NCBI GenBank assembly: GCA_902521655.1
Contig: CABYSM010000003.1
Coordinates: 15,297-79,296 of the forward strand
Direction: 5' to 3'
Length of the DNA stretch: 64,000 nt
From: an uncultured Pelagibacteraceae bacterium
GTDB lineage: Bacteria > Pseudomonadota > Alphaproteobacteria > Pelagibacterales > AG-422-B15
The notes under the pieces are model-generated. The model ran no database searches and was not told the origin of the DNA. It worked only from the letters and a program-made list of their open reading frames with translations. Positions 7,148 to 33,831 of the stretch are shown piece after piece (position 1 is the first letter of the stretch; each line of letters opens with the position of its first letter). Position numbers and translations under genes: made by a program.

Positions 7148-7149
7148 TT

Positions 7150-8307
7150 CTAGTTTCTTATAGTTCGATAAATTGAAATCATTAAGAAAATAAAAGTAAA
7201 AAATACAATTGTATATATAAAACCAATAGGACCAAAAATATCCATAACTCTTCCCCCAATCAAAGGACCAATTAATGAACCGCACTCAAAAACCATCACC
7301 AATATTGCCGTTGCGCCCGCAACCTGTGAAGCAGTATATCTTTCTCCCAACATTGTAAGTGATATCGAGAATATTCCACTTGCTGCTCCTCCCCAAATAA
7401 AACAGCTCAATGCCACTAAATAGAAGTTTCCAAGAAAAACACCTATAATTATTGGACAAATAAAAGTACAGAAGACAGCAATATTCATAAGTAGTCTCTT
7501 ATTCATCCTATCAAGTAAAATACCAATTAGCGGCTGGCATATGACACCGCCAACTAACGTAATAGTGACAAACTGAAGAGCAATGTCTTGTGAAAACTGA
7601 TTCTTAATCATAAAGATTGGAAAAAATGACACGAACATAACATCGTCTAATCCACAGAGAATTGCAGCTCCAAAAATAGTTGGGGCAGCTATTATCGTCG
7701 CTAAAATCGGAAGAGACTTTTTCTCAGGCAATTCTTGATCTGCTATATTGAATGTTATGAGAGGAATAATTGCTATAAATGACATTGCTGCAATTACAAT
7801 AAATGGAAGCCATCCCTCAATCCCCGTTAAAGATATAACAAGAGGACCAATTGCAAAGCCAATAATAAATACGGTATTGTATATTGTTACAATTTTCCCC
7901 CTATTTGTATCATCTGCCATTGATAACATCCATGTATCAAAGGCATTCCATGCAAGTGCTCCTGCAAAACCGATAAGAAATCGTATAATAAACCATGCAG
8001 TTAAACTCTCAAATACGGGAAAGGTGAAATATAAAATAATTGTGACAATCTGAGCAATCACAATGGACCTAGACAATCCAATTGTGTGAATGATAATAGG
8101 AGTAATTCTAACAAATAAAATTACCGCCAACGGTTGGGCTACAACATTCAAACCGATCTGTGTATTGCTATAGCCTCTTGATTCAAGTATTAGAGATAAT
8201 AAGGGAATAAGTGTTCCTAGTTTTATGCCAATAATGAGTGCACATAAAAATAAAACAATATAAGTTTTATAGTTACTTCCAAGTATTGATTGAAAAGATG
8301 AAATCAC
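7150..8307 (-). CDS. MFS transporter
   Basis: 385 aa with about 12 TM segments. It overlaps the upstream TetR gene by 4 nt. Confidence 0.75.
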   Translation of the reverse strand: MISSFQSILGSNYKTYIVLFLCALIIGIKLGTLIPLLSLILESRGYSNTQIGLNVVAQPLAVILFVRITPIIIHTIGLSRSIVIAQIVTIILYFTFPVFESLTAWFIIRFLIGFAGALAWNAFDTWMLSMADDTNRGKIVTIYNTVFIIGFAIGPLVISLTGIEGWLPFIVIAAMSFIAIIPLITFNIADQELPEKKSLPILATIIAAPTIFGAAILCGLDDVMFVSFFPIFMIKNQFSQDIALQFVTITLVGGVICQPLIGILLDRMNKRLLMNIAVFCTFICPIIIGVFLGNFYLVALSCFIWGGAASGIFSISLTMLGERYTASQVAGATAILVMVFECGSLIGPLIGGRVMDIFGPIGFIYTIVFFTFIFLMISIYRTIRN

Positions 8308-8948
8308 ACAAACCGTTTTTCATCTGTATAAATATTTTTAAAGTATTTTTTTACTAGTCCTTTACAAAATACGTGTGAGTACATTTTAGGATCAAATAAA
8401 ATTCTTTGCCATAACCCATCTACCATTGAGAGATAAGTCTCACTTATTTCTTTTGGGGTAAGAAAAGATTGATTATTTAAAATATTTACTTCTTTAATTA
8501 ACTTTTCCATCTGAGATGAATATATTTCATCTTGTTTTTGACAGATTGATAAATAAGAAGGACGGAACTTTACTTCACTATAGAAAGATACCCAGACTGC
8601 AATTTTATTTCTATTTGCAATTTTACTACTGAAATCATTTTCGATTATCTTAATCACTCTACCAACAGGATCTAAGTTATTATCTTCAAATATTCGTTGC
8701 CAAGAATTTTTATATTCGTCTGACAGAAATTTTAGTGAACTTAGTAAAAGATTTTCTTTAGATTTAAATCTAAAATTTGCATAGCCTTGTGATACCATTG
8801 CTTTTTTAGCAACTTGTGCAATCGTAGTATCTCCAAGACCTCTTTTAGCTATAGTTTCAATTGTTGCATCAATCAGTTTTTGATGATTGATTGAGAATTC
8901 TTGATCTTCAAGTTGATGATCACTAATTTTTTTGGGACTTATATTCAT
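8304..8948 (-). CDS. TetR-family transcriptional regulator
   Basis: N-terminal HTH is IETIAKRGLGDTTIAQVAKKAMVSQGYANFRFKSKENLL. I prefer the ATG at 8948 (MNISPKK) over the GTG at 8963 used by the ORF track. It is the first gene of a TetR-MFS-GNAT string and is divergent from the 9044 operon. Confidence 0.8.
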   Translation of the reverse strand: MNISPKKISDHQLEDQEFSINHQKLIDATIETIAKRGLGDTTIAQVAKKAMVSQGYANFRFKSKENLLLSSLKFLSDEYKNSWQRIFEDNNLDPVGRVIKIIENDFSSKIANRNKIAVWVSFYSEVKFRPSYLSICQKQDEIYSSQMEKLIKEVNILNNQSFLTPKEISETYLSMVDGLWQRILFDPKMYSHVFCKGLVKKYFKNIYTDEKRFV

Positions 8949-8990
8949 AAAAGAACCATACACAAAGTTTAATCATATGGGTAGTTTTGT

Positions 8991-9008
8991 ATTGAATAAT
9001 CATTCAAT
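8991..9008. promoter_or_regulatory. Candidate operator: 7-N4-7 inverted repeat ATTGAAT-aatc-ATTCAAT
   Basis: Perfect 7-bp arms read directly from the sequence. It sits in the 95-nt divergent gap between the TetR gene and the 9044 operon. The half-site is shared with the palindrome at 13422-13439. Confidence 0.55.
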
Positions 9009-9043
9009 ATGAGTATCATAATAATTCAATATTCGTACATTTT

Positions 9044-10672
9044 ATGCCAAAAAATACTCATGATGTAATTGTTGTTGGAGCGGGCCATAACGGGCTTACT
9101 GCAGCTAGTTATATGGCTAAAGCAGGATTAGATGTCGTTGTCCTAGAAAAAAATGATTGGATTGGCGGCGCGGCAGTAAGTCGAGAGCTTTACCCAGGAT
9201 GGAAATATTCAAATTGTTCTTATGTATGTAGTTTATTAAGGCCAGAGATCATGCGGGACTTAGAGCTTTATAAGTATGGGCTACAAATTATCCCATACGA
9301 AGGCAGTGCCACGATGATGAAAAATGGAGATTATTACACTCATTACCATGATCATGACATGACTATAAATTCTATAAGGCGTCATTCTCATAAAGACGCA
9401 GAAGCATATGAAAGATACAGCCGAGACGTTCTTAGACAATGTAAAATTATTAAGCCTCTACTAAAAATGACACCGCCTGACTTAACATCATTTAAACCAA
9501 AAGATTTATTTGGTGCCCTCGAGTTTGCGAAACATTTTGCTGCAAAAGATGAACTAGATGGTCTTGGAGAAAAAGAGATTTATGAAACTATTCGTTTCTA
9601 TACGATGAGTATTAGAGATTACTTAGAGGAATATTTTGAAAGTGAAATAACTAAAGCCCATCTTGCTGGCAGTGCAATCATAGGCACAGCTTTGGGTCCA
9701 TGTTCGCCAGGATCAGCTTATGTGTTGCTGCACCATTATATGGGTGAAGTTGATGGATCAGTTGGCTCATGGGGCTATGCAAGAGGTGGCATGGGATCTA
9801 TTACTCAAGCAATGATGGGTTGTTTAAAAGACCATGGTGGTGAAGTAAAGCCTAGCAGCGAAGTAACTAACGTTATTACAAAAAATGGAAAAGCAATTGG
9901 GGTCGCAACACAAAATGGTGATGAATATTACGCAAAGAAAATTGTATCCAATCTTGATGTCAAACGAACATTTCTAAAGATTACTGAGGAGAAGGATCTT
10001 CCTGATGATTTTGTGAGAAGCGTGAAAAATTTCAAGATAAGGGGGTCATCTGGTAAATTAAATATTGCATTAGATGCATTACCAGATTTTCCATGCATAC
10101 CTGAAGGCGATCCAGGGGGTGGTGGAGACATGCACTTCACAGAAACAATTGAAGAGATGGAAGGCGCTTATGACGATTGGAAAAGGGGAGAATGGTCACG
10201 AAATCCTTATGTAGATATGTGTATTCCATCCAAAAGTGATCCGACAATGGCTGAGCCTGGTAAGCATTATATGTCTGTATTTATTCAGTATGTACCATTC
10301 AACCTCGCAAATGGCGGATGGAATGAAGAGAGAAAGCAAGAGTTTGGAAGACATATTGTTGATTGTATTTCAGAGTTTTCACCTAACTTTAAAGACTTAA
10401 TTAATCATTATGAGGTTCGTACACCACTAGAATTGGAAAACGAGGTTGGTCTGACAGAGGGTAATATTTTTCAAGGAGAGTTGACCATGGACCAATTAAT
10501 GTTCAATAGGCCAGTCCCAGGATATGCACAGTATCGGACTCCATTAAAAAATATGTATATATGCAGTTCTTCAACACATCCAGGCGGAGGTGTAATGGGT
10601 GCCCCAGGAGCTAACGCTGCTCGTGAAGTTTTACTAGACATGAACGTTCCACAAAAAGGAAATTATTATTAA
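9044..10672 (+). CDS. NAD(P)/FAD-dependent oxidoreductase, amine-oxidase / CrtI (phytoene desaturase) fold
   Basis: 542 aa with N-terminal dinucleotide fold VIVVGAGHNGLTAASYMAKAGLDVVVLEK and C-terminal HPGGGVMGAPG. Confidence 0.7.
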   Translation: MPKNTHDVIVVGAGHNGLTAASYMAKAGLDVVVLEKNDWIGGAAVSRELYPGWKYSNCSYVCSLLRPEIMRDLELYKYGLQIIPYEGSATMMKNGDYYTHYHDHDMTINSIRRHSHKDAEAYERYSRDVLRQCKIIKPLLKMTPPDLTSFKPKDLFGALEFAKHFAAKDELDGLGEKEIYETIRFYTMSIRDYLEEYFESEITKAHLAGSAIIGTALGPCSPGSAYVLLHHYMGEVDGSVGSWGYARGGMGSITQAMMGCLKDHGGEVKPSSEVTNVITKNGKAIGVATQNGDEYYAKKIVSNLDVKRTFLKITEEKDLPDDFVRSVKNFKIRGSSGKLNIALDALPDFPCIPEGDPGGGGDMHFTETIEEMEGAYDDWKRGEWSRNPYVDMCIPSKSDPTMAEPGKHYMSVFIQYVPFNLANGGWNEERKQEFGRHIVDCISEFSPNFKDLINHYEVRTPLELENEVGLTEGNIFQGELTMDQLMFNRPVPGYAQYRTPLKNMYICSSSTHPGGGVMGAPGANAAREVLLDMNVPQKGNYY

Positions 10673-12189
10673 TGTCTGACAATTCGAATTTTGATGCCAT
10701 CATAATCGGTGGAGGTCATAATGGATTGGTATGCGCAAATATCCTTGCTAGAAAAAATAAAAGAGTACTAATTTGTGAAGCACGAAAAGAGTGTGGTGGC
10801 ATGGTCAACAATGAAATCACAAACTATGTTCCTCCAGTAACAACAGCTGTTTCAAGTTCGTTAGGAGGTATGCAAGTAAATTATTTGCCAAAGACTACAA
10901 TCGCTTTATCTGAAACTGGGCAGCACATCCGACTAGTTGGCAATCAACACATTGACCATAAATCTATCTCAACATTTTCATCGCACGATGCTGACCGTTT
11001 TAATGATTTTCATGAGAAAATGTCAAAATTCTCAAAAACTCTGGGCTCCTTCATGATGGCATCACCTCCACGTATTATGAACAACAGCTTTTCTGACTAT
11101 TTTAAGCTCTTCAAGCTTGGATTAAATGTTAGGCTACTAGGAAAGAAAAATTTCAATGAGTTTGCCAGGATGATTGGTCTAAATATAGCTGATGAACTCG
11201 AAGATAATTTTGAAAATACATTACTTCAAGGGTTGATTGCACATGACTCAGTCATAGGGTCAAATTTAGGCCCACGTTCACCAGGCTCTCTCATAAACTT
11301 ATTATATAGAATGGCTATCCACAATAATTCATTATTTGGTGGCATATTTCAGATAGAGGGAGGCAACGATCAATTCACTAAACATCTAATTGAAAAATGT
11401 AAAAGCAATAATGTAGAAATAAAGACCTCAGCGTCTGTTAAAAATTGTATTGTTGAAGATGACTGTGCTGTAGGCGTTGAACTAATTAATGGTGAAAAGG
11501 TGTATGCTAAGAAAATTATTTCTAATGTAGATCCACGTTCAACATACTTTTCATTACTTGGCTCTCAAAACCTTGATACTGACGTAAAAAGGAAAATTAA
11601 GCATCATCGCTCCAAAGGACGAGTTGCTAAACTTATTTTAGATTTAAACAAGTTACCTAGTTTTAACAATTGTGATGATATTGATCTTGATAGCAGAATG
11701 GTTGTTGCTCCATCTATTGATTACATTGAAGAAACATTTAACCCTAGTAAGTTTGACAAGCTTTCACTAGAGCCAACACTTGAAATTTGTGTAAAGAAAG
11801 ACTCTGATCAAAATCCAAAATTAGACATTCAAGTTCAATATGCACCATATAAAACTGATCAAGGGTGGGAAAATGTAAAAGAAAATTATATTGAATCTAT
11901 AATCAAAATCATTAGTAAATATGCTCCCAATATTAATGAATGCATCGAGCATAAGAAATTAATAACCCCTGACGATATTGAATTAGAATATAATGTATCA
12001 GGTGGACACTGGCATCACGGCGAGATCCAAATTGATCAGCTTTTTATGATGCGCCCAATTCCAGGAGCCTCACAGTATAAAACGCATTTGGATGGTCTTT
12101 TTATGTGTGGCGCAGGAACACATCCAGGTGGTGGCTTAACCGGTATTTCAGGCAAAAATGCAGCCAAAGCAGTTTTGGACGATTTTTAA
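10672..12189 (+). CDS. NAD(P)/FAD-dependent oxidoreductase, amine-oxidase / CrtI fold (paralogue of 9044)
   Basis: 505 aa with IIIGGGHNGLVCANILA and C-terminal HPGGGLTGISG. Its start overlaps the upstream stop (TAATG at 10670-10674). Confidence 0.7.
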   Translation: MSDNSNFDAIIIGGGHNGLVCANILARKNKRVLICEARKECGGMVNNEITNYVPPVTTAVSSSLGGMQVNYLPKTTIALSETGQHIRLVGNQHIDHKSISTFSSHDADRFNDFHEKMSKFSKTLGSFMMASPPRIMNNSFSDYFKLFKLGLNVRLLGKKNFNEFARMIGLNIADELEDNFENTLLQGLIAHDSVIGSNLGPRSPGSLINLLYRMAIHNNSLFGGIFQIEGGNDQFTKHLIEKCKSNNVEIKTSASVKNCIVEDDCAVGVELINGEKVYAKKIISNVDPRSTYFSLLGSQNLDTDVKRKIKHHRSKGRVAKLILDLNKLPSFNNCDDIDLDSRMVVAPSIDYIEETFNPSKFDKLSLEPTLEICVKKDSDQNPKLDIQVQYAPYKTDQGWENVKENYIESIIKIISKYAPNINECIEHKKLITPDDIELEYNVSGGHWHHGEIQIDQLFMMRPIPGASQYKTHLDGLFMCGAGTHPGGGLTGISGKNAAKAVLDDF

Positions 12190-13389
12190 ATGACACAAGA
12201 TCTTAGATATTCAGCCTTAAAGAAGACACCTTTTCATTCCAGAACCAGTATGGCTTCTCGAACTAACAAATATTATAATTGGAATGGCTACACTGTACCC
12301 ACTGAATATTCAACAACCGAGCTAGAATATACAGCAGCAAGAAATGGTACATCAGTTATGGATCTTACCCCTATGGGCAAATATGAAATTACGGGTGATC
12401 ATGCGCATAGATTTGTTGATTACTTAGTTACCCGAGACCTATCAGAAATGAAGGACAATACAGTAGCTTACATCATCTGGTGCAATGAAGATGGAAAAGT
12501 GATTGACGATGGTACTATTTTTAAATTTTCTTCAACAAAATTTATGCTGTGCTGTGCTGTTAAAATATATAACTGGCTTAACGACTCAGCTTATGGCTTT
12601 GATGTTTCAATAAGCGATGTAACAGACACTATTGCAGCATTAGCAATTCAAGGGCCAACATCGTGCTCGACTTTAAAAAAATTTGGAGCAACTGATCTTG
12701 AAAAACTAAAACCTTTTGAAATGAGAGAATATAAAATTGATGGCTTTAATATTTTAATTTCACGCACAGGATTCACTGGTGATTTGGGTTACGAATTGTG
12801 GACTGATCCAAAAAATGCAGAAACTACATGGGACAATATTGAGATTGCTGGCAAGGAGCTAAAATTAAGACCTTTTGGAATGCATGCTCTCGAAATGACA
12901 AGAATTGAAGCTGGGTTTATTCAAACCAATACAGACTTTATGGCCGCAGAAGACTCATTAAGACCAACCAGAATGAGGTCACCTTATGAAATTGGAATGG
13001 GATGGCTCGTGCACTTAAACAAGAACTCATACTTCGTTGGAAAGAAAGCTCTTAAAAAAGAAAAAGAAGAAAACACTACTGAGAGATGTTTAGTAGGTTT
13101 GGATATAGATGGAGATAAGCCAGCACATGGTTCTGTGATCTATAACAGCAAAAAAGAAGACATTGGCATTGTAACTGCAGCTCTATGGTCTCCTATTATG
13201 AAAAAAAACATTGCACTGGCTTCACTCAAGAGACCTTACGGAATAAAAATAAAAGAAAATATATTTGCAGAAATTTATCACCCTGAAGAACTTGAGTACC
13301 GTAAGATATGGGCAAGATGCAAGGTAGTGAAAAGGCAATTTTTTAACCCTGAAAGAAGAAATAAAGTTCCTGCAGATCTATATGAATAG
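12190..13389 (+). CDS. GcvT-family aminomethyltransferase-like (folate-binding T-protein fold)
   Basis: 399 aa with typical T-protein stretches: TPFHSRT, AARNGTSVMDLTPMGKYEITG, ALAIQGP, ISRTGFTGDLGYELW and LRPFGMHALEMTRIEAG. Its ATG follows the upstream TAA directly. Confidence 0.75.
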   Translation: MTQDLRYSALKKTPFHSRTSMASRTNKYYNWNGYTVPTEYSTTELEYTAARNGTSVMDLTPMGKYEITGDHAHRFVDYLVTRDLSEMKDNTVAYIIWCNEDGKVIDDGTIFKFSSTKFMLCCAVKIYNWLNDSAYGFDVSISDVTDTIAALAIQGPTSCSTLKKFGATDLEKLKPFEMREYKIDGFNILISRTGFTGDLGYELWTDPKNAETTWDNIEIAGKELKLRPFGMHALEMTRIEAGFIQTNTDFMAAEDSLRPTRMRSPYEIGMGWLVHLNKNSYFVGKKALKKEKEENTTERCLVGLDIDGDKPAHGSVIYNSKKEDIGIVTAALWSPIMKKNIALASLKRPYGIKIKENIFAEIYHPEELEYRKIWARCKVVKRQFFNPERRNKVPADLYE

Positions 13390-13413
13390 CCAAAAAATAA
13401 GGATTATATAGTA

Positions 13414-13451
13414 ATTCAATTATTGAACAGCTGTTCAATTTAAGCTATAAT
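13414..13451 (+). promoter_or_regulatory. Candidate operator plus promoter: ATTCAAT-t-ATTGAACAGCTGTTCAAT overlapping TTGAAC-N17-TATAAT
   Basis: There is an 18-bp perfect palindrome at 13422-13439 and an extra half-site at 13414-13420. The -35-like TTGAAC is at 13423-13428 and the -10 TATAAT at 13446-13451. The ATG of the next gene is at 13457. Confidence 0.5.
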
Positions 13452-13456
13452 GATTC

Positions 13457-14860
13457 ATGCCTAAATCCACATCCCAGCCTCCTATAAAAGATTTAAAGAA
13501 TACCCTAGATGATCGAATTCTTCATCCATGGCAATACTTAGAATACAGAGGTGAAGATGATCGGACATTTATTGATAAGTCTGAGGGGATTTACCTTTAT
13601 GACAAAACAGGAAAAAAACTAATTGATGGACCTGGAGGCATGTGGAATGTCAATGTTGGTCATGGTGTTAAAGAAATTGCGGATGCAGTTTACAATCAAA
13701 TTACTAAAATGCCTTACGCAAGTCCGTTTACTGAATCAACAGAAATAGCTCACAATTATGCATCAAGACTTGTTCAATATGCACCTGGTGATTTAAAAAG
13801 GATTTTTTTTACTTCTGGTGGATCGTCTGCTGTGGACTCAGCATTACGATTTGTAATGTTCTATAATAATATTCTAGGCCGAAAAGAAAAAAAACAAATC
13901 ATATCAAGAAATGATGCTTACCACGGTAGCACATTTTTAGGAGCTTCTTGCTCAGGCAAAGAAAGAGATAAAAATAATTTTGATTTCGCAAGTAATATTG
14001 TTCACCATATTTCATCTCCTAATCCTTTTCGTAAACCTGATGATCTTACTGATGAAGAATTCTGTGATCTAAAGGTTCAAGAATTAGAAAACAAAATAAT
14101 TGAAATTGGCGCTGACAAGGTTGCTGCTTTTATAGCTGAGCCTATTTTAGCTTCAGGTGGTGTGATTGTCCCACCAAAAGGTTATCATAAGAAGACACAC
14201 GAAATTTGTAAGAGACATGATGTACTGTACATTTCAGACGAAATCGTTACTGGTTTTGGAAGACTTGGCCACATTTTTGCTTCAGAAAATTATTTTGATT
14301 TCACACCGGATATTATACTTCTCGCTAAGGGGATCACATCTGGATATGTGCCTTGCGGAGCTGTTGTTATATCAGAGCGATTGATGTCCAAATTAGATAA
14401 TAAAGAGAAAGTAATTTTTTCAAACGGTTTCACAGACTCAGGGCATCCTGTTAGCATGGCCGCCGCAACTGCAACTCTGGACTACATTGAAAAAACTCAC
14501 TTACTTGATCACGTAAAAGATGTTGGCCCTTATTTTCAAGCAAAATTGAGAGAGCTCACTGATTTACCAATTGTTGGTGAAGTTAGAGGTGAAGGTCTTA
14601 TGGCCGCAGTAGAATGTGTGGGTAATAAGGATAAAAAAGATCCACTGAATTTATCTTACGAGATTGGTTCTAGGATTAATGAGCATTGCCAGCAATTAGG
14701 TTTAATCGTACGACCATTATTTAGTACATGCGTCATGTCACCGTCATTAATTATCACGAAGGAACAAGTTGATGACCTTGTTTCTATTTTGCGTAAAGGC
14801 ATAGAGTTAGCAACAGATGATATCAAAAAAGAAGGTCTCTGGTCAGCAACTTCAAATTAA
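13457..14860 (+). CDS. Class-III PLP aminotransferase
   Basis: 467 aa with DAYHGSTFLGASCSG, DEIVTGFGRLGHIFAS and ILLAKGITSGYVPCG. Confidence 0.8.
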   Translation: MPKSTSQPPIKDLKNTLDDRILHPWQYLEYRGEDDRTFIDKSEGIYLYDKTGKKLIDGPGGMWNVNVGHGVKEIADAVYNQITKMPYASPFTESTEIAHNYASRLVQYAPGDLKRIFFTSGGSSAVDSALRFVMFYNNILGRKEKKQIISRNDAYHGSTFLGASCSGKERDKNNFDFASNIVHHISSPNPFRKPDDLTDEEFCDLKVQELENKIIEIGADKVAAFIAEPILASGGVIVPPKGYHKKTHEICKRHDVLYISDEIVTGFGRLGHIFASENYFDFTPDIILLAKGITSGYVPCGAVVISERLMSKLDNKEKVIFSNGFTDSGHPVSMAAATATLDYIEKTHLLDHVKDVGPYFQAKLRELTDLPIVGEVRGEGLMAAVECVGNKDKKDPLNLSYEIGSRINEHCQQLGLIVRPLFSTCVMSPSLIITKEQVDDLVSILRKGIELATDDIKKEGLWSATSN

Positions 14861-16098: not shown

Positions 16099-16115
16099 TG
16101 TAGGACAAATTTCTT

Positions 16116-17471: not shown

Positions 17472-17507
17472 ATTGCATCTATTATTTATATAAATTAAAA
17501 TTTTCTA

Positions 17508-20283: not shown

Positions 20284-20334
20284 CCTGTCCTCAAGAGAGA
20301 ACAAGCTATTTTAAATTAGTTAACTAGTAGTGTA

Positions 20335-21423
20335 TTAGCCGCCAGCTACCATTTCAGCCCACTGAGCTTCCATGTAGTCAGTCACTTCGTCAGACGGCAT
20401 CACAGAGAACATTCCATTATTTAAATGTTCGATAGGATTTGATGCAACTCCACGTTCAGCTAATTCGTCAGCTGTAAGTGTGCTAAATCCAGCTTTATTA
20501 CTGTGTCCATAACCCCACTCACTTAATAAGTAAGCAGATGTTTCAGCACTAGTAGCACCATTGATCATCGCGTATGCTTTATCAAGGTCTGCACCTTTAA
20601 CAATCGCAAGACCACATGCCCAAGTCATTGTGCCATTGGAAGGCTGCATCATTTTTGCACCTGCACTCCATGCTATTTCGTTCCATCCAAGAGCTACGTC
20701 TATTTCTTCGTTACCTAGCGCTTCGATCATTGAAGAAGTATCTCCAAAGAATGCACGAATTTGACCATTGTCTCTCATTTCACGAAACTTATCGATACCT
20801 TGATCAATTGCAGCTTTTGTTAATTGATCTTGCTCTCTTATGTCAATTCCAAGATGGTGCATCATTAAAAATAATGAGTCTGCAGCAGAGTCTAAAATAC
20901 CTACTTTACCTTTTACTCTTGGGTCTTCCATTAGAGCAAAGCTTTCATTTGAGGCGTCCATCCAATCAATCCTGTCTGCCATGTAAAACAATGTAGTATC
21001 TCCCCAGTCGACTGGCGCAAAATAATGCTTACCATCAACCATGCCACTTGGCAGGTCTCTAACTTCAGGGAACATGTCATTCCAGTTTTCAATTCTTGAT
21101 GGATCAAGCGGCTCTAATACGCCTGCTCTTACCCATCTTTTTATTTCACCTTGACATGGCCATGCTAAGTCAACTTCAAAGCCTGCTTTTAGTTTTTGCA
21201 ATCCTTCTTCAGCATCACCAAATATTGAGTATTCAGGGGAACCGTGCTCTTCAGCGTATGTTCCAAATAGACCATCATCATCGTAGCCACCCCACAGGAA
21301 TACAGATCCTGGCTCATCTGCAAAAGCTTTAGTTGTTGACGTTACACCAGCGATAAAAACAAACGATAGTGATACAATCAAAGCTTTTACAAAAGAATTT
21401 TTCATTTCTTTGTATTTTGGCAT
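20335..21423 (-). CDS. Periplasmic substrate-binding protein of a PotD/PotF-type ABC importer
   Basis: 362 aa with a signal peptide ending TKAFA|DEPGS. It is an acidic, Trp-rich mature protein, convergent with the potBCA-like genes. A GAGGAAG Shine-Dalgarno lies 7 nt before the ATG. Confidence 0.7.
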   Translation of the reverse strand: MPKYKEMKNSFVKALIVSLSFVFIAGVTSTTKAFADEPGSVFLWGGYDDDGLFGTYAEEHGSPEYSIFGDAEEGLQKLKAGFEVDLAWPCQGEIKRWVRAGVLEPLDPSRIENWNDMFPEVRDLPSGMVDGKHYFAPVDWGDTTLFYMADRIDWMDASNESFALMEDPRVKGKVGILDSAADSLFLMMHHLGIDIREQDQLTKAAIDQGIDKFREMRDNGQIRAFFGDTSSMIEALGNEEIDVALGWNEIAWSAGAKMMQPSNGTMTWACGLAIVKGADLDKAYAMINGATSAETSAYLLSEWGYGHSNKAGFSTLTADELAERGVASNPIEHLNNGMFSVMPSDEVTDYMEAQWAEMVAGG

Positions 21424-21458
21424 AATTAATCTTCCTCTTTTTTTTATTTATACCAAAA

Positions 21459-21486
21459 ATTGTACACCTATAAGGTCGTTGGTCAA
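21459..21486 (-). promoter_or_regulatory. Candidate sigma70-type promoter for the binding-protein gene (TTGACC-N16-TACAAT on minus strand)
   Basis: The reverse complement of 21481-21486 is TTGACC and of 21459-21464 is TACAAT. It lies in the 67-nt gap between the amidase stop and the SBP start. Confidence 0.45.
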
Positions 21487-21490
21487 TATA

Positions 21491-22987
21491 TTAAAGGGGA
21501 ATCAAGGGACGATTTTTGTTTGAATTAAGCCATGGATCTAACATTTCGTAGTTGTACCCACCCTGGAATACTAATTCATCGCTGTAAGATCGAGCAATAA
21601 TTTGGATTCCTGTTGGAATATTGCTAGAACTTAATCCTGAAGGGACTGATAGGACCGGTAATTTACCTAACATATTAAATGGATGTGACATGACCCAAGA
21701 AAAATCTGCACACTTCTGCTCTTTATTATTGATAATGATATTTTCATTAACAATATCAATATCAGCCTTAATTGAAGGTAAGGAGTTTGTAGGACATATA
21801 AATAAATCGTAACTGTCTAATATTGGTCCAATTTCTGAATACATTCGGCCTGTGATCTCTGAGCTTTCAATAACATCATATCCAACATAAGCCCCTATTT
21901 GATCATGATAGTACTTCTCATTATTTTGTATCGCTCTGATATGTAATTCAGGGACTTCAGCAAACATTTTTGCATAATCAGTTAATAGTTTTTTTTCATC
22001 GTTTGAAAATTTTGCTATTAGGCCATAAAATGAATTAGCGTAATGACTAAAGCAAACTGAATTTACTTCATCTCGATTCCAATTTAATTTTACTTCTGTA
22101 ATTGTTGCACCAAGAGCCTCAAATTTTTTTAGAGCCTCCAATGTATTTTTTTCAACTTCTTCATCCACCTCAAAAAATCCAAGATCAAGTGAATAAGCAA
22201 TTTTCCAGTTCTTAATATTCTCAAACTTATTAGGAATAATTTTTTTGGGTCTGAGTGAAGCAATATCATTTTTATTTGGACCACTCATAACATTTTGCAT
22301 AAGGGCACAATCACTAACTGTTCTCGCAAGGGGACCAACAACACAATACGGATCGTGATTAAAAGGATAACCCATTGGATTTCTTCCATAGGGAGGTTTG
22401 TAACCAACGACTCCGCAGGCCCCAGCAGGGATACGAATTGATCCACCTATATCACTACCAGTTGCAAGTGATGCACAACCCGACGCTAGTGCAGCAGCAC
22501 TCCCCCCACTTGAACCTCCCGGTGTCATATCTAAGTTCCAGGGATTTCTTGTGACGCCATTAACTTTGGAATGGCAGAATGATGTAAGTGAAAATTCTGG
22601 GTTAGTTGTGCGTGCATGAATTATTGCACCAGAGCTTACAAGGGACTCTACATCTACATCAGTTCCTTCTGCTATTACGTCTTTATAGATTAAGCTTCCA
22701 TTCTTATTAGGTTGTCCCTTTATATTAACTTCATCTTTAATTGCTAAAGGTAAACCTTCCAAAGGCAAAGTAGATTTATCTTCTGTATATTTTAATTCTG
22801 AATGTTTCGCTTCTTTCAATGCTTCTTCAAAGCGAAAAAAATTAAAAGCATTAATTTTTGGGTTTACATTTTCAATTCTTTTTATTGTCTCATTTAATAG
22901 CTCAACTGGAGACAAAGATTTATTTTTAAATTTTTCCAGGGCTTCAGAAGCTGATAAATAACAAATATCGAGGTCTAAACTACTCAT
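21491..22987 (-). CDS. Amidase-signature (AS) family amidase
   Basis: 498 aa with the AS motif GGSSGGSAAALASG, GSDIGGSIRIPA and the upstream catalytic Lys context LAIKDEV. Confidence 0.85.
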   Translation of the reverse strand: MSSLDLDICYLSASEALEKFKNKSLSPVELLNETIKRIENVNPKINAFNFFRFEEALKEAKHSELKYTEDKSTLPLEGLPLAIKDEVNIKGQPNKNGSLIYKDVIAEGTDVDVESLVSSGAIIHARTTNPEFSLTSFCHSKVNGVTRNPWNLDMTPGGSSGGSAAALASGCASLATGSDIGGSIRIPAGACGVVGYKPPYGRNPMGYPFNHDPYCVVGPLARTVSDCALMQNVMSGPNKNDIASLRPKKIIPNKFENIKNWKIAYSLDLGFFEVDEEVEKNTLEALKKFEALGATITEVKLNWNRDEVNSVCFSHYANSFYGLIAKFSNDEKKLLTDYAKMFAEVPELHIRAIQNNEKYYHDQIGAYVGYDVIESSEITGRMYSEIGPILDSYDLFICPTNSLPSIKADIDIVNENIIINNKEQKCADFSWVMSHPFNMLGKLPVLSVPSGLSSSNIPTGIQIIARSYSDELVFQGGYNYEMLDPWLNSNKNRPLIPL

Positions 22988-23039
22988 AAGATTATTTTAT
23001 TTTAATTTATTAATTAATAAAATATATTGAATTCACACC

Positions 23040-24134
23040 ATGATTGATCAAAACATTAGAGACATTATTAAAAACCAAGACCCTTATACAGGAATGGATC
23101 AGCTTTTTTTCACTAACAAAGCATTGTTTGATCTAAGTTATGAGGCTGTTTTCAAGAAACAGTGGGTATTTCTTACTCATCTATCTTATTTTAATGAAAA
23201 CAATACATTCATTTATCAAATTAATGGCGGATTTGTTGAAATAAAAAAGTCTAAAGATAATAATTTAACTATCTCATCATCTTTACCTGATTTCAAATTT
23301 CATTTAAAAGTTTATGAAAGCTTAATTTTTGTCAACTTTTCTGAAGTACCATATTCATTTGAAGAATTCATAAAACCACTAGAACCATATATTAAAATTC
23401 ATGGCCTGAATGACGGCAAGATCGCATTTCAAAAAGACTTTATATTTAATGCTTCTCATCTCGCAACCATTCACAACTTCAAAGAATGTGCACATTGTTG
23501 GGGAGGCGAGTTTACTCACAAAGATTATTTAAGTGTTCATGGAGAGGCGTATTGTAATTCTTATGGAGCTGGGGTTGGCTCAGGAATTGAATCTCCTGAA
23601 TTCAATCAACGTATAAAAGATTGGACATTTGAAAGTCAAAATAAAGGTTTGTTTGTTGGCGAGTACAGTGAAGACACCAATAAATATTTTAGAATTGCAG
23701 AGCGCACTCCTTTACCTGAAGGCATACTGTCTGAGACAATGGATGGTAGCTATTCATGCTCTTCATTAATGGGTGACTTTAAAACTATAGGACCAGATAA
23801 TGGTTATACCGCTATTGGTTTTAGCCCATTCAATAGCTTTGTTGCCAATAATGAATTTGTAATTCTTTTTTTATTTACTCCTGTTAGTCAAAATAAAACA
23901 ATCGTTACTCAATATTGGGTTACTCACAAAGATGCTGAAGTTGACATTGATAAAATGATTTTTCTTTGGGACCAAACATCAACAGAAGACTCCCAATTGT
24001 GTGAAATGAATCAAAAGGGCATTGAAAGTCGAGCTTATCAGCCTGGAAAGTATGGCGAACTTGAGACAAGTTTGGTTCAATATCAAAAGTTCTATCTAAG
24101 TCATTTACAAAATCACGTTAATGGACTGACTTAA
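23040..24134 (+). CDS. Rieske-oxygenase alpha-subunit paralogue lacking the Rieske cluster ligands (catalytic SRPBCC-type domain only)
   Basis: 364 aa and collinear with the 14860 protein (FKKQW, LIFVNF, NFKECAHC, ERTPLPEG..L..T.DG, WDQTSTED..NQ). It has no Cys in residues 1-149 and carries a deletion of about 40 aa where CxH...CxxH should be. The Fe motif is altered to H152-x7-H160. Confidence 0.65.
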   Translation: MIDQNIRDIIKNQDPYTGMDQLFFTNKALFDLSYEAVFKKQWVFLTHLSYFNENNTFIYQINGGFVEIKKSKDNNLTISSSLPDFKFHLKVYESLIFVNFSEVPYSFEEFIKPLEPYIKIHGLNDGKIAFQKDFIFNASHLATIHNFKECAHCWGGEFTHKDYLSVHGEAYCNSYGAGVGSGIESPEFNQRIKDWTFESQNKGLFVGEYSEDTNKYFRIAERTPLPEGILSETMDGSYSCSSLMGDFKTIGPDNGYTAIGFSPFNSFVANNEFVILFLFTPVSQNKTIVTQYWVTHKDAEVDIDKMIFLWDQTSTEDSQLCEMNQKGIESRAYQPGKYGELETSLVQYQKFYLSHLQNHVNGLT

Positions 24135-24148
24135 GTCAGAGATATAAA

Positions 24149-25519
24149 ATGAAAGTTGCTACACAAGCTGAATTTGATGAAGTATTAAGTCAGCACAATA
24201 ATATTCAATATGTCGATGCAATCTTCACAGATTTATGTGGTTATGTAAGAGGAAAACGTTTCCCCGTCCTTGAAGCAAATAAAATTTTTTCAGATGGCGT
24301 TCTTCTCCCATTCTCCGCATTTTATCTAGATGTTCTAGGAGGAGTAACAAACACCCTAAATCTAGGTTGGACAGATGGTGATCCTGATGGTGTTCTGGTT
24401 CCTGTTAAAGGAAGTATTAAGCCAGTCCCGTGGGATGAACGCTTCTTACAGGTATTAATCACAATGAGAAAAGAGCAAGAAAATTGGGGAGTGATACAAG
24501 ACCCATCTGAGGTTGACCCTAGAAATATTCTAAAAAAAGTTATGAAGAATTTTAAGAACACTGGATTGAAGCCTGTGGTTGCTTTTGAATTAGAATTTTA
24601 TCTTTTAGACAAAAATAGGGATGAGTTTGGGAAACCAATACCTGCTGAAGGTGCTAATAAAACTCATGTTTATGGCATACCAGACCTTGATCTCTTCGGT
24701 AAGTTATTTGATGATATTAACAAGAATTGCGAAATGCAAAATATACCAGCGACTACTGCTTCAAGTGAATTTGCTGCGGGACAGTATGAAATTAATCTAA
24801 AGCACACTGGAGATCTTCTAAAAGCCGCAGATGATGCTGCTTTATTAAGACGTATTATTAAAGAGACAAGTGAACGACATGGCTATGAAGCAACATTTAT
24901 GGCAAAACCCTTTCTAGATCAAACTGGTAATGGAATGCATCTTCATCTCTCCGTTTATGATGAAAATGAAAAAAATATATTTGCTACTTCCAATCGTTAC
25001 GGAAATAAAAAATTAAAAAGTGCTATAGCTGGTTTTCAATCAATGTTTTATGATAGTTTTCCAATCTTTATTCCAAATCGAAATGGTTACAGAAGAATAG
25101 AAACAAGAAATTTCGTTCCTGTTAATACAAGTTGGTCCTGGAATCGAAGAGATGTTTCATTAAGAATACCAGCTGGATCAAATGACACAAAAAGAATTGA
25201 ACATCGCGTAGCTTCATCAGATGCTAATCCTTATCTAGTCCTAGCATGCTTATTAGCAGGGTTGCATAATGGCCTTACTAATGAATTGACCCCATCGAAC
25301 CAAGTTGATTTCGATAATAATGAAGGAGCGGATAAAGAAGCTGATATTGATATGCCAAAAAATATGGACCAAGCGTTAGCGCGTTTCCAATCTTCCAAAC
25401 TATTAAAAAAATATCTTGGGAAAGAATATCTTGATCTTTACACTGCTGCAAAACAAGGTGAAATTGATCATGTCGAGTCAAGTTTTGTTCCTCGAGAGGA
25501 ATATGATCTCTATTTATAA
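24149..25519 (+). CDS. Glutamine synthetase-family ligase (PuuA/GmaS-like gamma-glutamyl-amine synthetase type)
   Basis: 456 aa with GS catalytic-domain stretches: EFAAGQYEINL, KPF..QTGNGMHLHLS, RIPAGS...RIEHRV.SSDANPYL. It has no GlnA-type adenylylation loop that I can recognise. Confidence 0.75.
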   Translation: MKVATQAEFDEVLSQHNNIQYVDAIFTDLCGYVRGKRFPVLEANKIFSDGVLLPFSAFYLDVLGGVTNTLNLGWTDGDPDGVLVPVKGSIKPVPWDERFLQVLITMRKEQENWGVIQDPSEVDPRNILKKVMKNFKNTGLKPVVAFELEFYLLDKNRDEFGKPIPAEGANKTHVYGIPDLDLFGKLFDDINKNCEMQNIPATTASSEFAAGQYEINLKHTGDLLKAADDAALLRRIIKETSERHGYEATFMAKPFLDQTGNGMHLHLSVYDENEKNIFATSNRYGNKKLKSAIAGFQSMFYDSFPIFIPNRNGYRRIETRNFVPVNTSWSWNRRDVSLRIPAGSNDTKRIEHRVASSDANPYLVLACLLAGLHNGLTNELTPSNQVDFDNNEGADKEADIDMPKNMDQALARFQSSKLLKKYLGKEYLDLYTAAKQGEIDHVESSFVPREEYDLYL

Positions 25520-25521
25520 TC

Positions 25522-26235
25522 ATGACTGAATTACTTTTTAACAATGACGCTTACCTCACTCAGTCTGAAGCAGTTGTTACAAACGTCGATCAAAACTCTA
25601 TTCAATTAAATCGAACAATTTTTTACGCTGAGTCAGGCGGACAGCCGGGTGATCAAGGAGAGATCATCCTAGGAGATCAAATTTATAAAGTTACTGACAC
25701 CCAGAAAGGTAATTCTCCAAATGAAATTATTCATTTAGTCGACGGTGATATTGATCAGAGCATTGTTGGTAAAGAATGTGAGATTAAAATTGATTGGGAA
25801 TTGAGACAAAGTCATATGAGAATGCATACCTCATGTCATATTCTGTGTAGTTTGATTGATGCTTTAATTACAGGTGCTTCAGTTGGAGCACAAAAAAGTA
25901 GAGTTGATTTTGATGTTGACCCGAGTTTGCTTGATAAAGAGGCAATGAATCAACAGATTGATGAAATTATTAAAAATAATTTTCCTGTATTCACAAAACA
26001 AATTTCTGGAGATGAATTTAGAGATAACCCTCATTTAGCAAAAGGCGCTGCTGTTAGCCCTCCTATAATTGATAACAAAGTACAAATTGTTCAAATCGGT
26101 GATGATAAAATTTTAGATATACAGGCGTGTGGAGGCACTCATGTGAAATCAACGGGTGAGATTGAAGGATTAGAGATTGGAAAAATTGAAAATAAAGGTA
26201 AAAGAAACCGAAGAGTAAACATAAGATTTAAATAA
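25522..26235 (+). CDS. AlaX-like protein (threonyl/alanyl-tRNA synthetase editing / SAD domain)
   Basis: 237 aa with zinc motifs H-x3-H (HTSCH) and C-x3-H (CGGTH). It starts 2 nt after the GS-like stop, and its own stop overlaps the next start (TAATG). Confidence 0.7.
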   Translation: MTELLFNNDAYLTQSEAVVTNVDQNSIQLNRTIFYAESGGQPGDQGEIILGDQIYKVTDTQKGNSPNEIIHLVDGDIDQSIVGKECEIKIDWELRQSHMRMHTSCHILCSLIDALITGASVGAQKSRVDFDVDPSLLDKEAMNQQIDEIIKNNFPVFTKQISGDEFRDNPHLAKGAAVSPPIIDNKVQIVQIGDDKILDIQACGGTHVKSTGEIEGLEIGKIENKGKRNRRVNIRFK

Positions 26236-27020
26236 TGACGAATATTCTCATCAGAAGTGATAAAAATTCAGTTGCTATACTAAGTTTGAATGACCTTCCA
26301 GCAAATAGTCTAAGTATGCCTATGATGGAAGAAATTCAAAATCAACTAACAACTATTGATCATGATGACTCAATTCGAGTTATAATCATAAAATCTGAAA
26401 GTGATAAAATATTTTCCTCAGGTCATAATTTAAAAGAGGTAAAAGGCTTTCTTGATAATAATGATACTAAATCTCAAGTTGATTTATTTTCAACGTGTTC
26501 CTCAATGATGAAACAAATTCAGGCTTTAAGTAAACCAGTCATTGCGCAGGTCAGAGGCATAGCAACTGCAGCTGGTGCCCAACTCGTTGCCTCATGTGAT
26601 TTAGCTTATGGATCATTAGATTCAAAATACGCAACTCCAGGAGTAAACATTGGATTATTTTGTCATACACCTCAAGTTGCTGTATCAAGGACAATTGGCA
26701 GAAAACCAATGATGGAAATGCTGTTAAGTGGAGAACCTATTTCGTCTGAAAGGGCTGTACAAATTGGATTGATCAATGCTGCGGTTGATAGTGCAGATTT
26801 AGAAAAAACAGTTCAGAAGTCATGCAATGATATTTGCAATAAATCAGCAGCTGTTATTGCCATGGGGAAAAAAAGTTTCTACCGTCAAAGTGAAATGCCT
26901 TTAACTGACGCATATGACTTTACAAGTGCAGAGATGGTAAGGAATTTAACACTTAATGATGGTAATGAGGGAATATCTTCTTTCCTTGAAAAAAGAGACC
27001 CGAACTGGTCTAACGATTAA
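26235..27020 (+). CDS. Enoyl-CoA hydratase/isomerase (crotonase) family protein
   Basis: 261 aa. Crotonase-fold stretches: IIIKSESDKIFSSGHNLKE and AQVRGIATAAGAQLVASCDLAY. Confidence 0.8.
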   Translation: MTNILIRSDKNSVAILSLNDLPANSLSMPMMEEIQNQLTTIDHDDSIRVIIIKSESDKIFSSGHNLKEVKGFLDNNDTKSQVDLFSTCSSMMKQIQALSKPVIAQVRGIATAAGAQLVASCDLAYGSLDSKYATPGVNIGLFCHTPQVAVSRTIGRKPMMEMLLSGEPISSERAVQIGLINAAVDSADLEKTVQKSCNDICNKSAAVIAMGKKSFYRQSEMPLTDAYDFTSAEMVRNLTLNDGNEGISSFLEKRDPNWSND

Positions 27021-33235: not shown

Positions 33236-33244
33236 GATCATATT

Positions 33245-33826: not shown

Positions 33827-33831
33827 TATTC

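Follow-up and report, generated by a model that had tools for sequence, protein, structure and literature searches.

A conserved SAR11 gene island with two CrtI-fold flavoproteins and a free-standing T-protein: a candidate pathway for N-methylated amines

What is degraded by a gene island that places a BetI-like repressor, two carotenoid-desaturase-like flavoproteins, a free-standing T-protein, a Rieske oxygenase, a glutamine synthetase (GS)-like ligase and a polyamine-type importer side by side? The question is raised by a 64,000-nucleotide stretch of DNA, here called the window (assembly GCA_902521655.1, contig CABYSM010000003.1, positions 15,297 to 79,296). It comes from a lineage of the Pelagibacteraceae (SAR11) that single-cell genomes have made known. 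SAR11 is the ocean's most abundant heterotroph, and methylated amines and polyamines are prominent among the forms of labile dissolved organic nitrogen. An earlier, sequence-only reading had drawn an island of 14 genes at 8304-27020, organized around one importer and one regulator, and had proposed an unassigned route for an N-substituted or methylated (poly)amine or an amide-linked osmolyte.

Profile scans of the open reading frame (ORF) translations with Pfam and NCBIfam bear out each family label of that reading, and the ORF list matches its coordinates exactly, with the repressor start alone differing. Its central observation also stands: on the Rieske, T-protein, PuuA and PuuB homologies, the island mixes demethylation-type and gamma-glutamylation-type parts with a PotF-family importer. 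The analysis described here indicates a widely distributed core with lineage-specific or SAR11 accessories and not one fixed pathway. With a probability of roughly one half, the island serves the catabolism of a cationic, N-methylated amine, or of a few such compounds related to each other, through tetrahydrofolate (THF)-coupled stepwise N-demethylation and transamination.

An invariant trio and its partners

The core includes, on the plus strand, two paralogous flavoproteins that are CrtI/CrtO-like, CrtI1 (9044-10672) and CrtI2 (10672-12189), followed by the free-standing T-protein of the GcvT family (12190-13389; GCV_T 200.9 bits, with GCV_T_C). A metagenome scan with a CrtI1 alignment returned 80 loci with GC contents of 30-67%, whose recognizable identifiers point to peat, soil, sediment and seawater samples. 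CrtI1 is followed by CrtI2 and then by the T-protein in all 51 loci that extend at least 3 kb downstream, and the start and stop codons of the trio overlap or abut. CrtI1 homologues are abundant: there are more than 8000 metagenomic candidates, 7997 of 8000 scored at E ≤1e-60, and single clusters at 90% identity hold 750-770 member sequences. The source records name the flavoprotein only generically, as 'phytoene dehydrogenase-like', 'phytoene desaturase family protein' or 'NAD(P)/FAD-dependent oxidoreductase'.

Partner genes were counted where each flank of the trio extends for 8 kb or more, as it does in 23 loci. A Rieske alpha subunit accompanies it in 19 of these, a class-III aminotransferase in 15, PotABC genes in 13 and an acyl-CoA dehydrogenase in 10. 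The TetR gene was found in nine, an undercount given its divergent orientation, an aldehyde dehydrogenase (ALDH) in five, and a GS-like ligase and a DAO-family oxidase in four each. A crotonase occurs once, and the amidase, the AlaX-like protein and the C26 hydrolase never. Because the trio is invariant, its partners frequent, and the amidase, AlaX-like and crotonase genes absent or nearly so, the island is best described as a core with accessories. The island's genes thus co-occur far beyond this genome, although the amidase and AlaX-like genes were not seen with the core outside SAR11 and the crotonase only once.

The same core is carried on plasmids. A tblastn search with CrtI1 recovered orthologues of about 60% identity on plasmids of Parasedimentitalea marina W43, Fuscovulum ytuae, Rhizobium sp. 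SL42, Shinella zoogloeoides and Ensifer adhaerens. Their neighbourhoods combine two 'NAD(P)/FAD-dependent oxidoreductases', an 'aminomethyltransferase family protein' and an aminotransferase with a TetR gene in divergent orientation, one or two Rieske alpha subunits and a Pot-type ABC importer. A like gene set is found on marine contigs (72% identity), in a gammaproteobacterial metagenome-assembled genome (MAG) and in a Rhodospirillaceae MAG. CrtI1 is the most conserved island gene, at least 93% identical across SAR11 loci and 58-73% identical in other alphaproteobacterial, gammaproteobacterial and soil loci. CrtI2 evolves faster (74% identity within SAR11, 31-41% elsewhere) and keeps the GxGxxG and C-terminal HPGGG motifs.

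The surroundings of the trio also vary between lineages. In the metagenomic loci L113, L128 and L131 the trio is present twice, the copies being a few kb apart or closer; the second one runs CrtI2-CrtI1-GcvT and has about 55% identity to the query. MocD/MocE/MocF-like genes (a fatty-acid-desaturase-family hydroxylase, a Rieske-type ferredoxin and a reductase) lie near the trio of Rhizobium sp. SL42 (L039, 10236-14748), and a desaturase-family gene flanks that of the Rhodospirillaceae MAG (L044, 17911-18768). A high-GC soil and peat clade (L079, 15682-17187; L060, L062, L068, L070, L074) carries a fused 3-hydroxyacyl dehydrogenase-thioesterase 3' of the trio and an ATPase gene. The score of this fusion on the carnitine 3-dehydrogenase model is 585 bits against a cutoff of 592, and an acyl-CoA dehydrogenase gene comes next.

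Within SAR11 the whole block is syntenic. One genome per species was scanned with the central DAO protein, which gave 35 Pelagibacterales loci. The order from the MFS transporter gene to the crotonase is the same in 34 of them, as far as the contigs reach, at 60-100% amino-acid identity. Measured against a diverged relative (L020), the ratio of non-synonymous to synonymous substitution (dN/dS) is about 0.02-0.1 for every island gene, so that all of them are under strong purifying selection. Because the order is kept in 34 loci and dN/dS is low, the block is a conserved functional island and not a chance arrangement.

A BetI-like repressor and two conserved dyads

The TetR-family repressor gene (8304-8963, minus strand) encodes a TetR_N domain and the BetI-type C-terminal domain TetR_C_6. 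Its start is ambiguous between the GTG at 8963 and the ATG at 8948, the latter being the one given in the sequence-only reading. In each lineage in which it was observed, it is transcribed away from the CrtI1 operon, as betI is from its target. The protein scores 95.1 bits on the BetI model (cutoff 201.3) and is 23% identical (201 aa, E 9e-18) to E. coli BetI, which represses betIBA and betT in response to choline, and its candidate target genes are not betA, betB or betT.

Two palindromes are candidate operators. The first, O1 (8990-9009), is the perfect palindrome TATTGAAT-aatc-ATTCAATA, located about 52 nt before the CrtI1 start and overlapping a -35/-10-like promoter (8992-9019) of the CrtI1 operon. 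It is invariant in all SAR11 loci, where the surrounding intergenic DNA diverges, and has no second perfect match in the window. Related TGAAT-N4-ATTCA dyads precede the trio in the 72%-identical contig L040, in Rhizobium and in Shinella. In the stretch between O1 and the gene (9010-9046), the promoter leaves a leader of about 20 nt that has no clear Shine-Dalgarno sequence. The second, O2, is the palindrome TATTGAAC-agct-GTTCAAT within 13421-13451 (palindrome 13422-13439), in the 67-nt gap before the aminotransferase gene. It can also be read as ATTGAAC-agct-GTTCAAT, is kept in about 30 loci, and has the form TTGAACAGCTGTTCAA in 28 SAR11 loci. O2 overlaps the region's best promoter-like site, TTGAAC-17-TATAAT. 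Because the aminotransferase ATG lies only about 6 nt past the -10 box, the spacing suggests a leaderless or near-leaderless transcript.

The two dyads have the common form TATTGA-N8-TCAAT, O1 being TATTGA-ATAATCAT-TCAATA and O2 TATTGA-ACAGCTGT-TCAAT. The E. coli betI-betT spacer contains TATTGA-TTGGACGT-TCAATA, a dyad that we take to be the BetI footprint and whose half-sites and spacing equal those of O1. BetI is known to bind in this spacer (PMC5934670). The position of the dyads suggests that 9044-13389 is under the BetI-like repressor, together with the unit that starts at 13457, which by gene spacing would extend to 20283.

Such control is not indicated for the whole island. In the operator search of the window, no dyad of the O1/O2 type was found before the gene at 23040, the amidase gene or the binding-protein gene, and the last has a conserved promoter of its own, TTGACC-16-TACAAT (21486-21459). 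Nothing indicates that the second module, the genes from 23040 to 27020, is under this repressor. The earlier picture of 14 genes forming one unit around one regulator is therefore not supported: the partner counts, the variation within SAR11 and the restriction of operators to the sites before 9044 and 13457 all speak against it.

A proposed stepwise N-demethylation and its alternatives

Stepwise N-demethylation is proposed because the trio is invariant and is combined with Rieske enzymes, aminotransferases, an amine importer and BetI-like control. On this proposal, the repressor would act on the TATTGA-N8-TCAATA dyads that overlap the promoters of 9044-13389 and 13457-20283, and the PotF-family ABC system would bring the amine in. 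The GbcA/Stc2-type Rieske enzyme would then hydroxylate the substrate, taking a methyl group off a quaternary or tertiary nitrogen. CrtI1 and CrtI2, which probably form a heteromer in which CrtI1 is catalytic, would oxidize the remaining N-methyl (or N-alkyl) C-N bond, the T-protein would catch the one-carbon (C1) unit as 5,10-methylene-THF, and the class-III aminotransferase would turn the resulting primary amine into an aldehyde. In SAR11, a parallel protecting-group route may be formed by the PuuA-like ligase (24149), the PuuB-like oxidase (16116) and the PuuD-like hydrolase (3328), the amidase or both. The Rieske-less oxygenase paralogue may be fed electrons by its Rieske-bearing paralogue in a mixed oligomer, and the crotonase may handle the carbon skeleton.

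Capture of C1 units by THF likewise occurs in dimethylglycine and sarcosine dehydrogenases and in heterotetrameric sarcosine oxidase. DmmD, a free-standing GcvT-domain protein, has been proposed to trap the formaldehyde released by dimethylamine monooxygenase (PMC5520151). The island resembles these THF-coupled N-demethylases (SoxABDG, DmmD) in that a GcvT-family protein is genetically tied to an oxidizing enzyme, in 51 of 51 loci. The best NCBIfam match of its T-protein is the C-terminal, THF-binding half of trimethylamine N-oxide demethylase (274 bits). The island differs in that the predicted oxidizing partner is a CrtI-fold paralogous pair and not a DAO/SoxB-type enzyme or DmmABC, and gamma and delta subunits are absent. 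The trio itself might be a three-component THF-coupled amine N-demethylase built from carotenoid-desaturase-fold flavoproteins, acting in a soil-to-ocean methylated-amine pathway with the Rieske enzyme, the transaminase and the BetI-like repressor, and with a partner-reduced Rieske-less subunit in SAR11; this fuller version is tentative and less likely than not.

The flavoproteins themselves point in two directions. Both have their best full-length sequence and fold matches among the CrtI/CrtO/CrtN enzymes, from which they differ by far-sub-cutoff scores (CrtO model 285.7 bits for CrtI1 and 169.6 for CrtI2 against a cutoff of 1000; crtI_fam 93.9 against 238) and by their constant partners (T-protein, aminotransferase and amine importer). 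The carotenoid genes crtB, crtY and blh are absent from the window. The predicted CrtI1 fold is nearest to 4rep and 4dgk, and next to the flavin amine oxidases NicA2, MAO and putrescine oxidase. The label 'amine oxidase' that the sequence-only reading had given to the pair was thus an interpretation, sequence and fold being nearest to carotenoid desaturases.

The Rieske protein (14860-16098, plus; Rieske and Ring_hydroxyl_A domains) has as its closest solved relatives 3n0q (TM1040_3219) and Stc2 (3vca, 4qup), at E of about 1e-71, followed by CntA. It shares with GbcA, Stc2 and CntA both domains, the full set of metal ligands in CSHRG...CPYHAW and ECYHCGPAH, and the E-x2-H-x4-H iron site. It differs from them in a GbcA score of 307.4 bits against a cutoff of 670, in having no reductase gene nearby, and in being accompanied by a paralogue, at 23040, without the [2Fe-2S] ligands. 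The aminotransferase (13457-14860, plus; Aminotran_3) is an omega-aminotransferase of the PRK07036 type (651.5 bits, cutoff 618). Orthologues of 49-59% identity are found by the trio in Parasedimentitalea, Rhizobium and the gammaproteobacterial and Rhodospirillaceae MAGs, and this type, placed downstream of the trio, is found in SAR11, Rhodobacterales and Rhizobiaceae. A second, non-orthologous type, similar to GntE and glutamate-semialdehyde aminomutase, stands directly 5' of CrtI1 in 31 loci. Because two non-orthologous types fill the same role, transamination is likely to be part of the pathway.

Several observations weigh against this proposal. The CrtI1 structure model is of moderate quality (predicted local distance difference test score 70), the sequences of both flavoproteins are closest to carotenoid ketolases and desaturases and not to known amine oxidases, and we know of no CrtI-type enzyme that acts on an amine. 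NCBIfam equivalog cutoffs are missed by the GbcA, BetI, PuuA-type, PuuD, PotB/C/F and AlaXM assignments, and no ORF of 110 aa or more in the window encodes a reductase of the GbcB/CntB/Stc3-4 type (FAD_binding_6/NAD_binding_1/Fer2). No operator was found 5' of the second module, so it is perhaps unrelated to the core. Neighbours in other lineages are diverse and include agmatine deiminase with N-carbamoylputrescine amidase, HDAC-like proteins, the carnitine-3-dehydrogenase-like fusion, acyl-CoA dehydrogenases and OYE/DgcA-like flavoproteins. Because these point different ways, the trio may serve different substrates in different hosts.

The importer and the gamma-glutamylation genes raise the alternative that best survives, an ordinary polyamine utilization locus. 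The importer genes lie on the plus strand and encode two permeases (17508-18392 and 18393-19208; BPD_transp_1) and an ATPase (19201-20283; ABC_tran). The ATPase passes the cutoff of the PotA subfamily model TIGR01187 (375.2 bits, cutoff 355.6) and does nearly as well on the PhnT2 (aminoethylphosphonate) model (373.9 bits), and the permeases score 191 bits on PotB (cutoff 348) and 176 bits on PotC (cutoff 326). A terminator-like hairpin with a 16-bp stem (20277-20312) separates the ATPase gene from the convergent gene for the PotF-family periplasmic binding protein (20335-21423, minus; SBP_bac_8), whose solved relatives all bind polyamines. Aligned on the residues that we take to be the PotF ligand set, W37, Y40, W244 and Y314 are invariant. 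In the subfamily shared by SAR11, Rhizobium and Parasedimentitalea, D247 is replaced by I, T or S, with a Glu one position earlier, and D278 by Cys; the Fuscovulum binding protein, 39% identical to PotF, keeps both. Within SAR11, the importer is also mosaic: PotB/C/A and the binding protein are 41-67% identical to those of the window in L012, 68-87% in most loci and 96-99% in L013 and L014, and the enzyme genes of the same loci (L012-L037) are uniformly 74-90% identical. This pattern suggests recombinational exchange of transporter cassettes.

The GS-like ligase (24149-25519, plus; Gln-synt_C 299 bits) is 38.7% identical to E. coli PuuA (447 aa, E 3e-106) and scores 187.6 bits on the gamma-glutamylputrescine synthetase model (cutoff 650). 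The DAO-family FAD oxidase (16116-17471, plus; Pfam DAO 176 bits) is 30.9% identical to PuuB (379 aa, E 3e-44), and in L042 and L048 the DAO gene adjoins a GS-like gene. Upstream of the island, the C26 hydrolase (3328-4092, minus; Peptidase_C26 194 bits) is 33% identical to PuuD, with 128.8 bits on the gamma-glutamyl-GABA hydrolase model (cutoff 266), and is by homology a probable part of the gamma-glutamylation route. An ALDH at 34607-36079 is 36% identical to PuuC. The C26 hydrolase and ALDH that the sequence-only reading had listed with the Puu route are thus present in the window, though outside 8304-27020 and in other transcription units, and no operator shared with the island was found for them in the window. 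Homologues of PuuA, PuuB, PuuD and PuuC near a Pot-type importer recall Puu of E. coli and Pau of Pseudomonas, by which putrescine and other polyamines are gamma-glutamylated and broken down. The differences are that the genes are spread over 33 kb and at least four transcription units, that no equivalog cutoff is reached, that the PuuA-like gene stands beside one for an oxygenase subunit, and that an amidase-signature enzyme is present besides the C26 hydrolase. A gamma-glutamyl route would best suit a compound that carries two or more amino groups.

In a polyamine locus, the CrtI pair would be a polyamine oxidase or dehydrogenase that splits secondary amines after import of putrescine, spermidine, norspermidine or similar compounds, and the aminotransferases and Puu-like enzymes would complete the breakdown; methyl groups would be irrelevant, and the T-protein would be structural or detoxifying. 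The Pot-type importer, the polyamine-binding relatives of the binding protein (with both aspartates intact in Fuscovulum) and the PuuA-, PuuB- and PuuD-like genes fit this well. Neighbours of the trio in other lineages agree too, namely agmatine deiminase with N-carbamoylputrescine amidase, and HDAC-like genes, as does an ALDH inside soil clusters that is 49% identical to PuuC. Such C-N cleavage would, however, yield C3 or C4 aldehydes that a T-protein cannot use, yet the T-protein is there in 51 of 51 loci, and the most frequent partners of the trio, in 19 of 23 loci, are Rieske oxygenases of the quaternary-ammonium type. The BetI-like regulator with its operator and the loss of two amine-binding aspartates of PotF in the SAR11 binding proteins also argue against it, and a study of polyamine use in SAR11 (PMC8437039) does not mention these genes. 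An ordinary polyamine locus is therefore unlikely.

Another possibility is that no common substrate exists and that independent operons stand side by side, namely the core at 8304-21423, an isolated amidase gene and, at 23040-27020, an operon of gamma-glutamyl and oxygenase genes. Operators are found before 9044 and 13457 alone, and the amidase, AlaX-like and crotonase genes have almost no association with the core elsewhere. In the SAR11 lineage with a 60%-identical Rieske-less protein (L046/L047), the island occupies the same chromosomal place in the order CrtI2-GcvT-aminotransferase-Rieske-DAO-PotBCA-binding protein-(Rieske-less)-GS-crotonase, and the amidase and AlaX-like genes are missing. 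Synonymous divergence (dS) from L020 is lower from the amidase to the crotonase (1.0-1.4) than in most core genes (1.4-3.5), and in L048 a Rieske-bearing relative of the Rieske-less protein stands beside a GS-like gene and two DAO genes, the trio being absent. Against separate operons, the order Rieske-less oxygenase, GS-like ligase, crotonase is kept directly 3' of the importer in every SAR11 lineage sampled, the 60% lineage included. Unrelated lineages (L040, L042, L083, L086, L113) also have GS-like and DAO genes next to the trio, with GS-like homologues of 45-47% identity in L040 and L042. The PuuB-like oxidase is encoded in the core operon and its PuuA-like partner in the second module, so the two halves would share a pathway if the Puu analogy holds. 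Independent operons are on balance quite improbable.

The oxygenase of the second module deserves separate description. The Rieske-less alpha-subunit paralogue (23040-24134, plus; Ring_hydroxyl_A, no Rieske domain) belongs to a family of 364-366 aa proteins with 60-98% identity that was found only in SAR11-like contigs, its nearest Rieske-bearing relatives being 36-40% identical. A clean deletion of about 49 aa in the alignment takes out both the CxH and the CxxH motif. The iron-site residues are kept: E149, H152, H160, D311 and D317 are invariant, though a four-residue insertion between the iron-binding histidines gives the spacing H-x7-H. The invariant glutamate aligns with what is presumably the inter-subunit bridging residue of CntA. 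The predicted fold matches 3n0q and Stc2 with template modelling scores of 0.78-0.79, segment 153-184, which runs from between the two histidines to beyond the second, being of low confidence, and the gene has a dN/dS of 0.046. In oligomers of such oxygenases, electrons pass from the Rieske centre of a subunit to the iron site of the adjacent one, and for this reason a mixed oligomer of the 23040 and 14860 proteins may be a reasonable idea. Rieske-less paralogues did not turn out to recur by the trio in Rhodobacterales, as the two 'SRPBCC family' proteins of Parasedimentitalea carry CxH...CxxH. Both of these genes adjoin the TetR gene on P. marina plasmid pW43C (L038, 14698-17142), and encode Rieske alpha subunits that are under-annotated in the record.

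The pairing of this gene with the GS-like ligase has a parallel in aryl-amine degradation, where a gamma-glutamylated amine is oxidized by a dioxygenase system of the same five-gene cluster (PMC11335346). As in the aniline and 1-naphthylamine systems (AtdA1/NpaA1), the GS-like gene lies directly beside an oxygenase alpha-subunit gene, and this pairing of GS-like and Rieske-type oxygenase genes recurs in further loci, among them the 60% SAR11 lineage and L048. The island differs from these systems in containing no beta subunit, reductase or amidotransferase-like gene, and its oxygenase is of the GbcA/Stc2 lineage and not aromatic, with the Rieske cluster gone in SAR11.

An alternative demethylation of glycine betaine, or of a betaine derived from carnitine or gamma-butyrobetaine, would assign the first step to the GbcA-like Rieske protein and make the trio a dimethylglycine/sarcosine demethylase. 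The GbcA model is the one on which the Rieske proteins score best (307 and 304 bits), and the BetI-like repressor with its operator agrees with a betaine. OYE/DgcA-like flavoproteins of 680 aa lie by the trio in Parasedimentitalea, Shinella and several metagenomic loci, the carnitine-3-dehydrogenase-like fusion does so in one soil clade, and folD and purU are located about 15 kb from the Rhizobium cluster. The importer, however, is Pot-type and not of the ProU, OpuA or BCCT type, the near-constant class-III omega-aminotransferase would have no role after glycine, and neither would the GS-like ligase and the DAO-family oxidase. The Rieske protein misses the GbcA cutoff (670) twofold and a GbcB-type reductase is lacking, which leaves a betaine route distinctly improbable. 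Three narrower assignments were rejected. A carnitine pathway is disfavoured, the fusion being limited to a single soil clade of six loci. For a dimethylamine monooxygenase (DmmDABC), no DmmABC-type genes were found by the trio, so that the free-standing GcvT protein is all that is shared, and dimethylamine would leave the aminotransferase and ALDH partners unexplained. A phosphonate pathway, raised by the PhnT2-like ATPase and Phn_aa_oxid-like DAO scores, finds no phosphonatase or C-P-cleaving genes in the window.

If stepwise N-demethylation is retained, several substrate groups fit parts of the evidence: methylated di- and polyamines, methylated ethanolamines of the choline family and omega-amino-acid betaines. 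Nothing was found in support of an amide-linked osmolyte. Long-chain polyamines of algal biosilica differ in their degree of methylation (PMC12206195), and the literature search found no description of a bacterial breakdown route for them; a link of the island to these compounds is speculative. The pathway does appear to be unassigned, as the sequence-only reading had suspected, since no annotation or paper naming its substrate was found; literature coverage was incomplete, and prior characterization is possible. 'Pelagibacter, resolved' does not mention the island genes.

Accessories, surroundings and meaning for SAR11

Three island genes have the character of accessories. The amidase-signature amidase (21491-22987, minus; Pfam Amidase 294 bits, GGSSGGS motif) is a SAR11-specific accessory, missing in L046/L047 and from the 23 loci elsewhere. 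The AlaX-like zinc protein (25522-26235, plus; tRNA_SAD) scores 201.6 bits on the AlaXM model against a cutoff of 300 and keeps the zinc motifs HTSCH (HxxxH) and CGGTH (CxxxH). Its gene is a variable accessory that is dispensable in L046 and also missing from two further SAR11 loci, L015 and L029. The crotonase (26235-27020, plus; ECH_1 158.7 bits) belongs to the enoyl-CoA hydratase family and passes the PRK08139 cutoff (316.8 against 313 bits). In about 20 related genomes (among L012-L034), its slot is filled by a 41%-identical paralogue between neighbours of 68-80% identity, which suggests non-orthologous replacement in place.

The gene junctions are as tight as the sequence-only reading had described. 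CrtI1 and CrtI2 overlap by 1 nt, as do the aminotransferase and Rieske genes, and overlaps also join the second permease gene to the ATPase gene and the AlaX-like gene to the crotonase. CrtI2 abuts the T-protein gene and the two permease genes abut each other, with 0 nt between them. Short gaps separate the Rieske and DAO genes (17 nt), the Rieske-less oxygenase and GS-like genes (14 nt) and the GS-like and AlaX-like genes (2 nt). Longer gaps are found 5' of 13457 (67 nt), 5' of 17508 (36 nt) and around the binding-protein and amidase genes (52-67 nt).

A left boundary at the TetR gene is too tight, as C26 hydrolase, acyl-CoA dehydrogenase, aminotransferase, GNAT and MFS genes lie directly upstream. 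The MFS transporter gene (7150-8307, minus; MFS_1) is co-directional and overlapping with the TetR gene and syntenic in SAR11 loci. A second class-III omega-aminotransferase (5352-6719, plus) is of the PRK07480 type (736.9 bits, cutoff 510). A small ORF for a GNAT-like acetyltransferase (6701-7285, minus) is a weak call (AAC(3)-I 44.8 bits) and overlaps the MFS ORF; a GNAT gene likewise lies 3' of the aminotransferase gene in Parasedimentitalea. The acyl-CoA dehydrogenase family protein (4142-5347, plus; Acyl-CoA_dh N/M/1) is of uncertain membership in the island. It was rejected as an orthologue of the acyl-CoA dehydrogenase that flanks the TetR gene in 10 of the 23 loci, the identity being only 26%.

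Downstream of the crotonase, EamA, TerB-DnaJ and PNP-oxidase genes are followed by a separate conserved operon (30363-36079) that ends in the ALDH gene. This operon encodes a luciferase-like monooxygenase, a thiamine pyrophosphate enzyme, an AA_synth protein (PF06684), an alpha/beta hydrolase and the ALDH. The thiamine pyrophosphate enzyme has its best match in sulfoacetaldehyde acetyltransferase (Xsc) at 425 bits, below the cutoff of 620, and the gene order is repeated in a diverged SAR11 lineage (L046, 16636-21101). Three EamA-family genes lie within the 64 kb (162-1061, 27017-27919 and 62430-63320), the second of them convergent on the end of the crotonase gene with a 4-nt overlap. The remaining genes of the window are housekeeping genes (trp, pyrF, rpsA, aroA, lpt, gltBD).

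The enzyme families of the island are known singly, and the novelty lies in how they are combined: two CrtI-fold proteins accompany a T-protein, a putative BetI-type regulon lacks bet genes, and an oxygenase subunit is Rieske-less. If ordinary polyamines or betaines prove to be the substrates, the result would be a useful correction of annotation and no surprise. It would be more interesting if the trio were a new type of THF-coupled N-demethylase for an abundant methylated amine. In that case, the CrtI fold and the T-protein would represent a new enzymatic solution to oxidative N-demethylation, and the trio would be a functional analogue of heterotetrameric sarcosine oxidase. The Rieske-less subunit, if active, would depend on an obligatory supply of electrons from another subunit, which is unusual in this enzyme class. 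As the trio is spread from peat and soil to the open sea, across GC contents of 30-67%, assignment of its substrate would add a flux of carbon, nitrogen and C1 units to marine and soil models.

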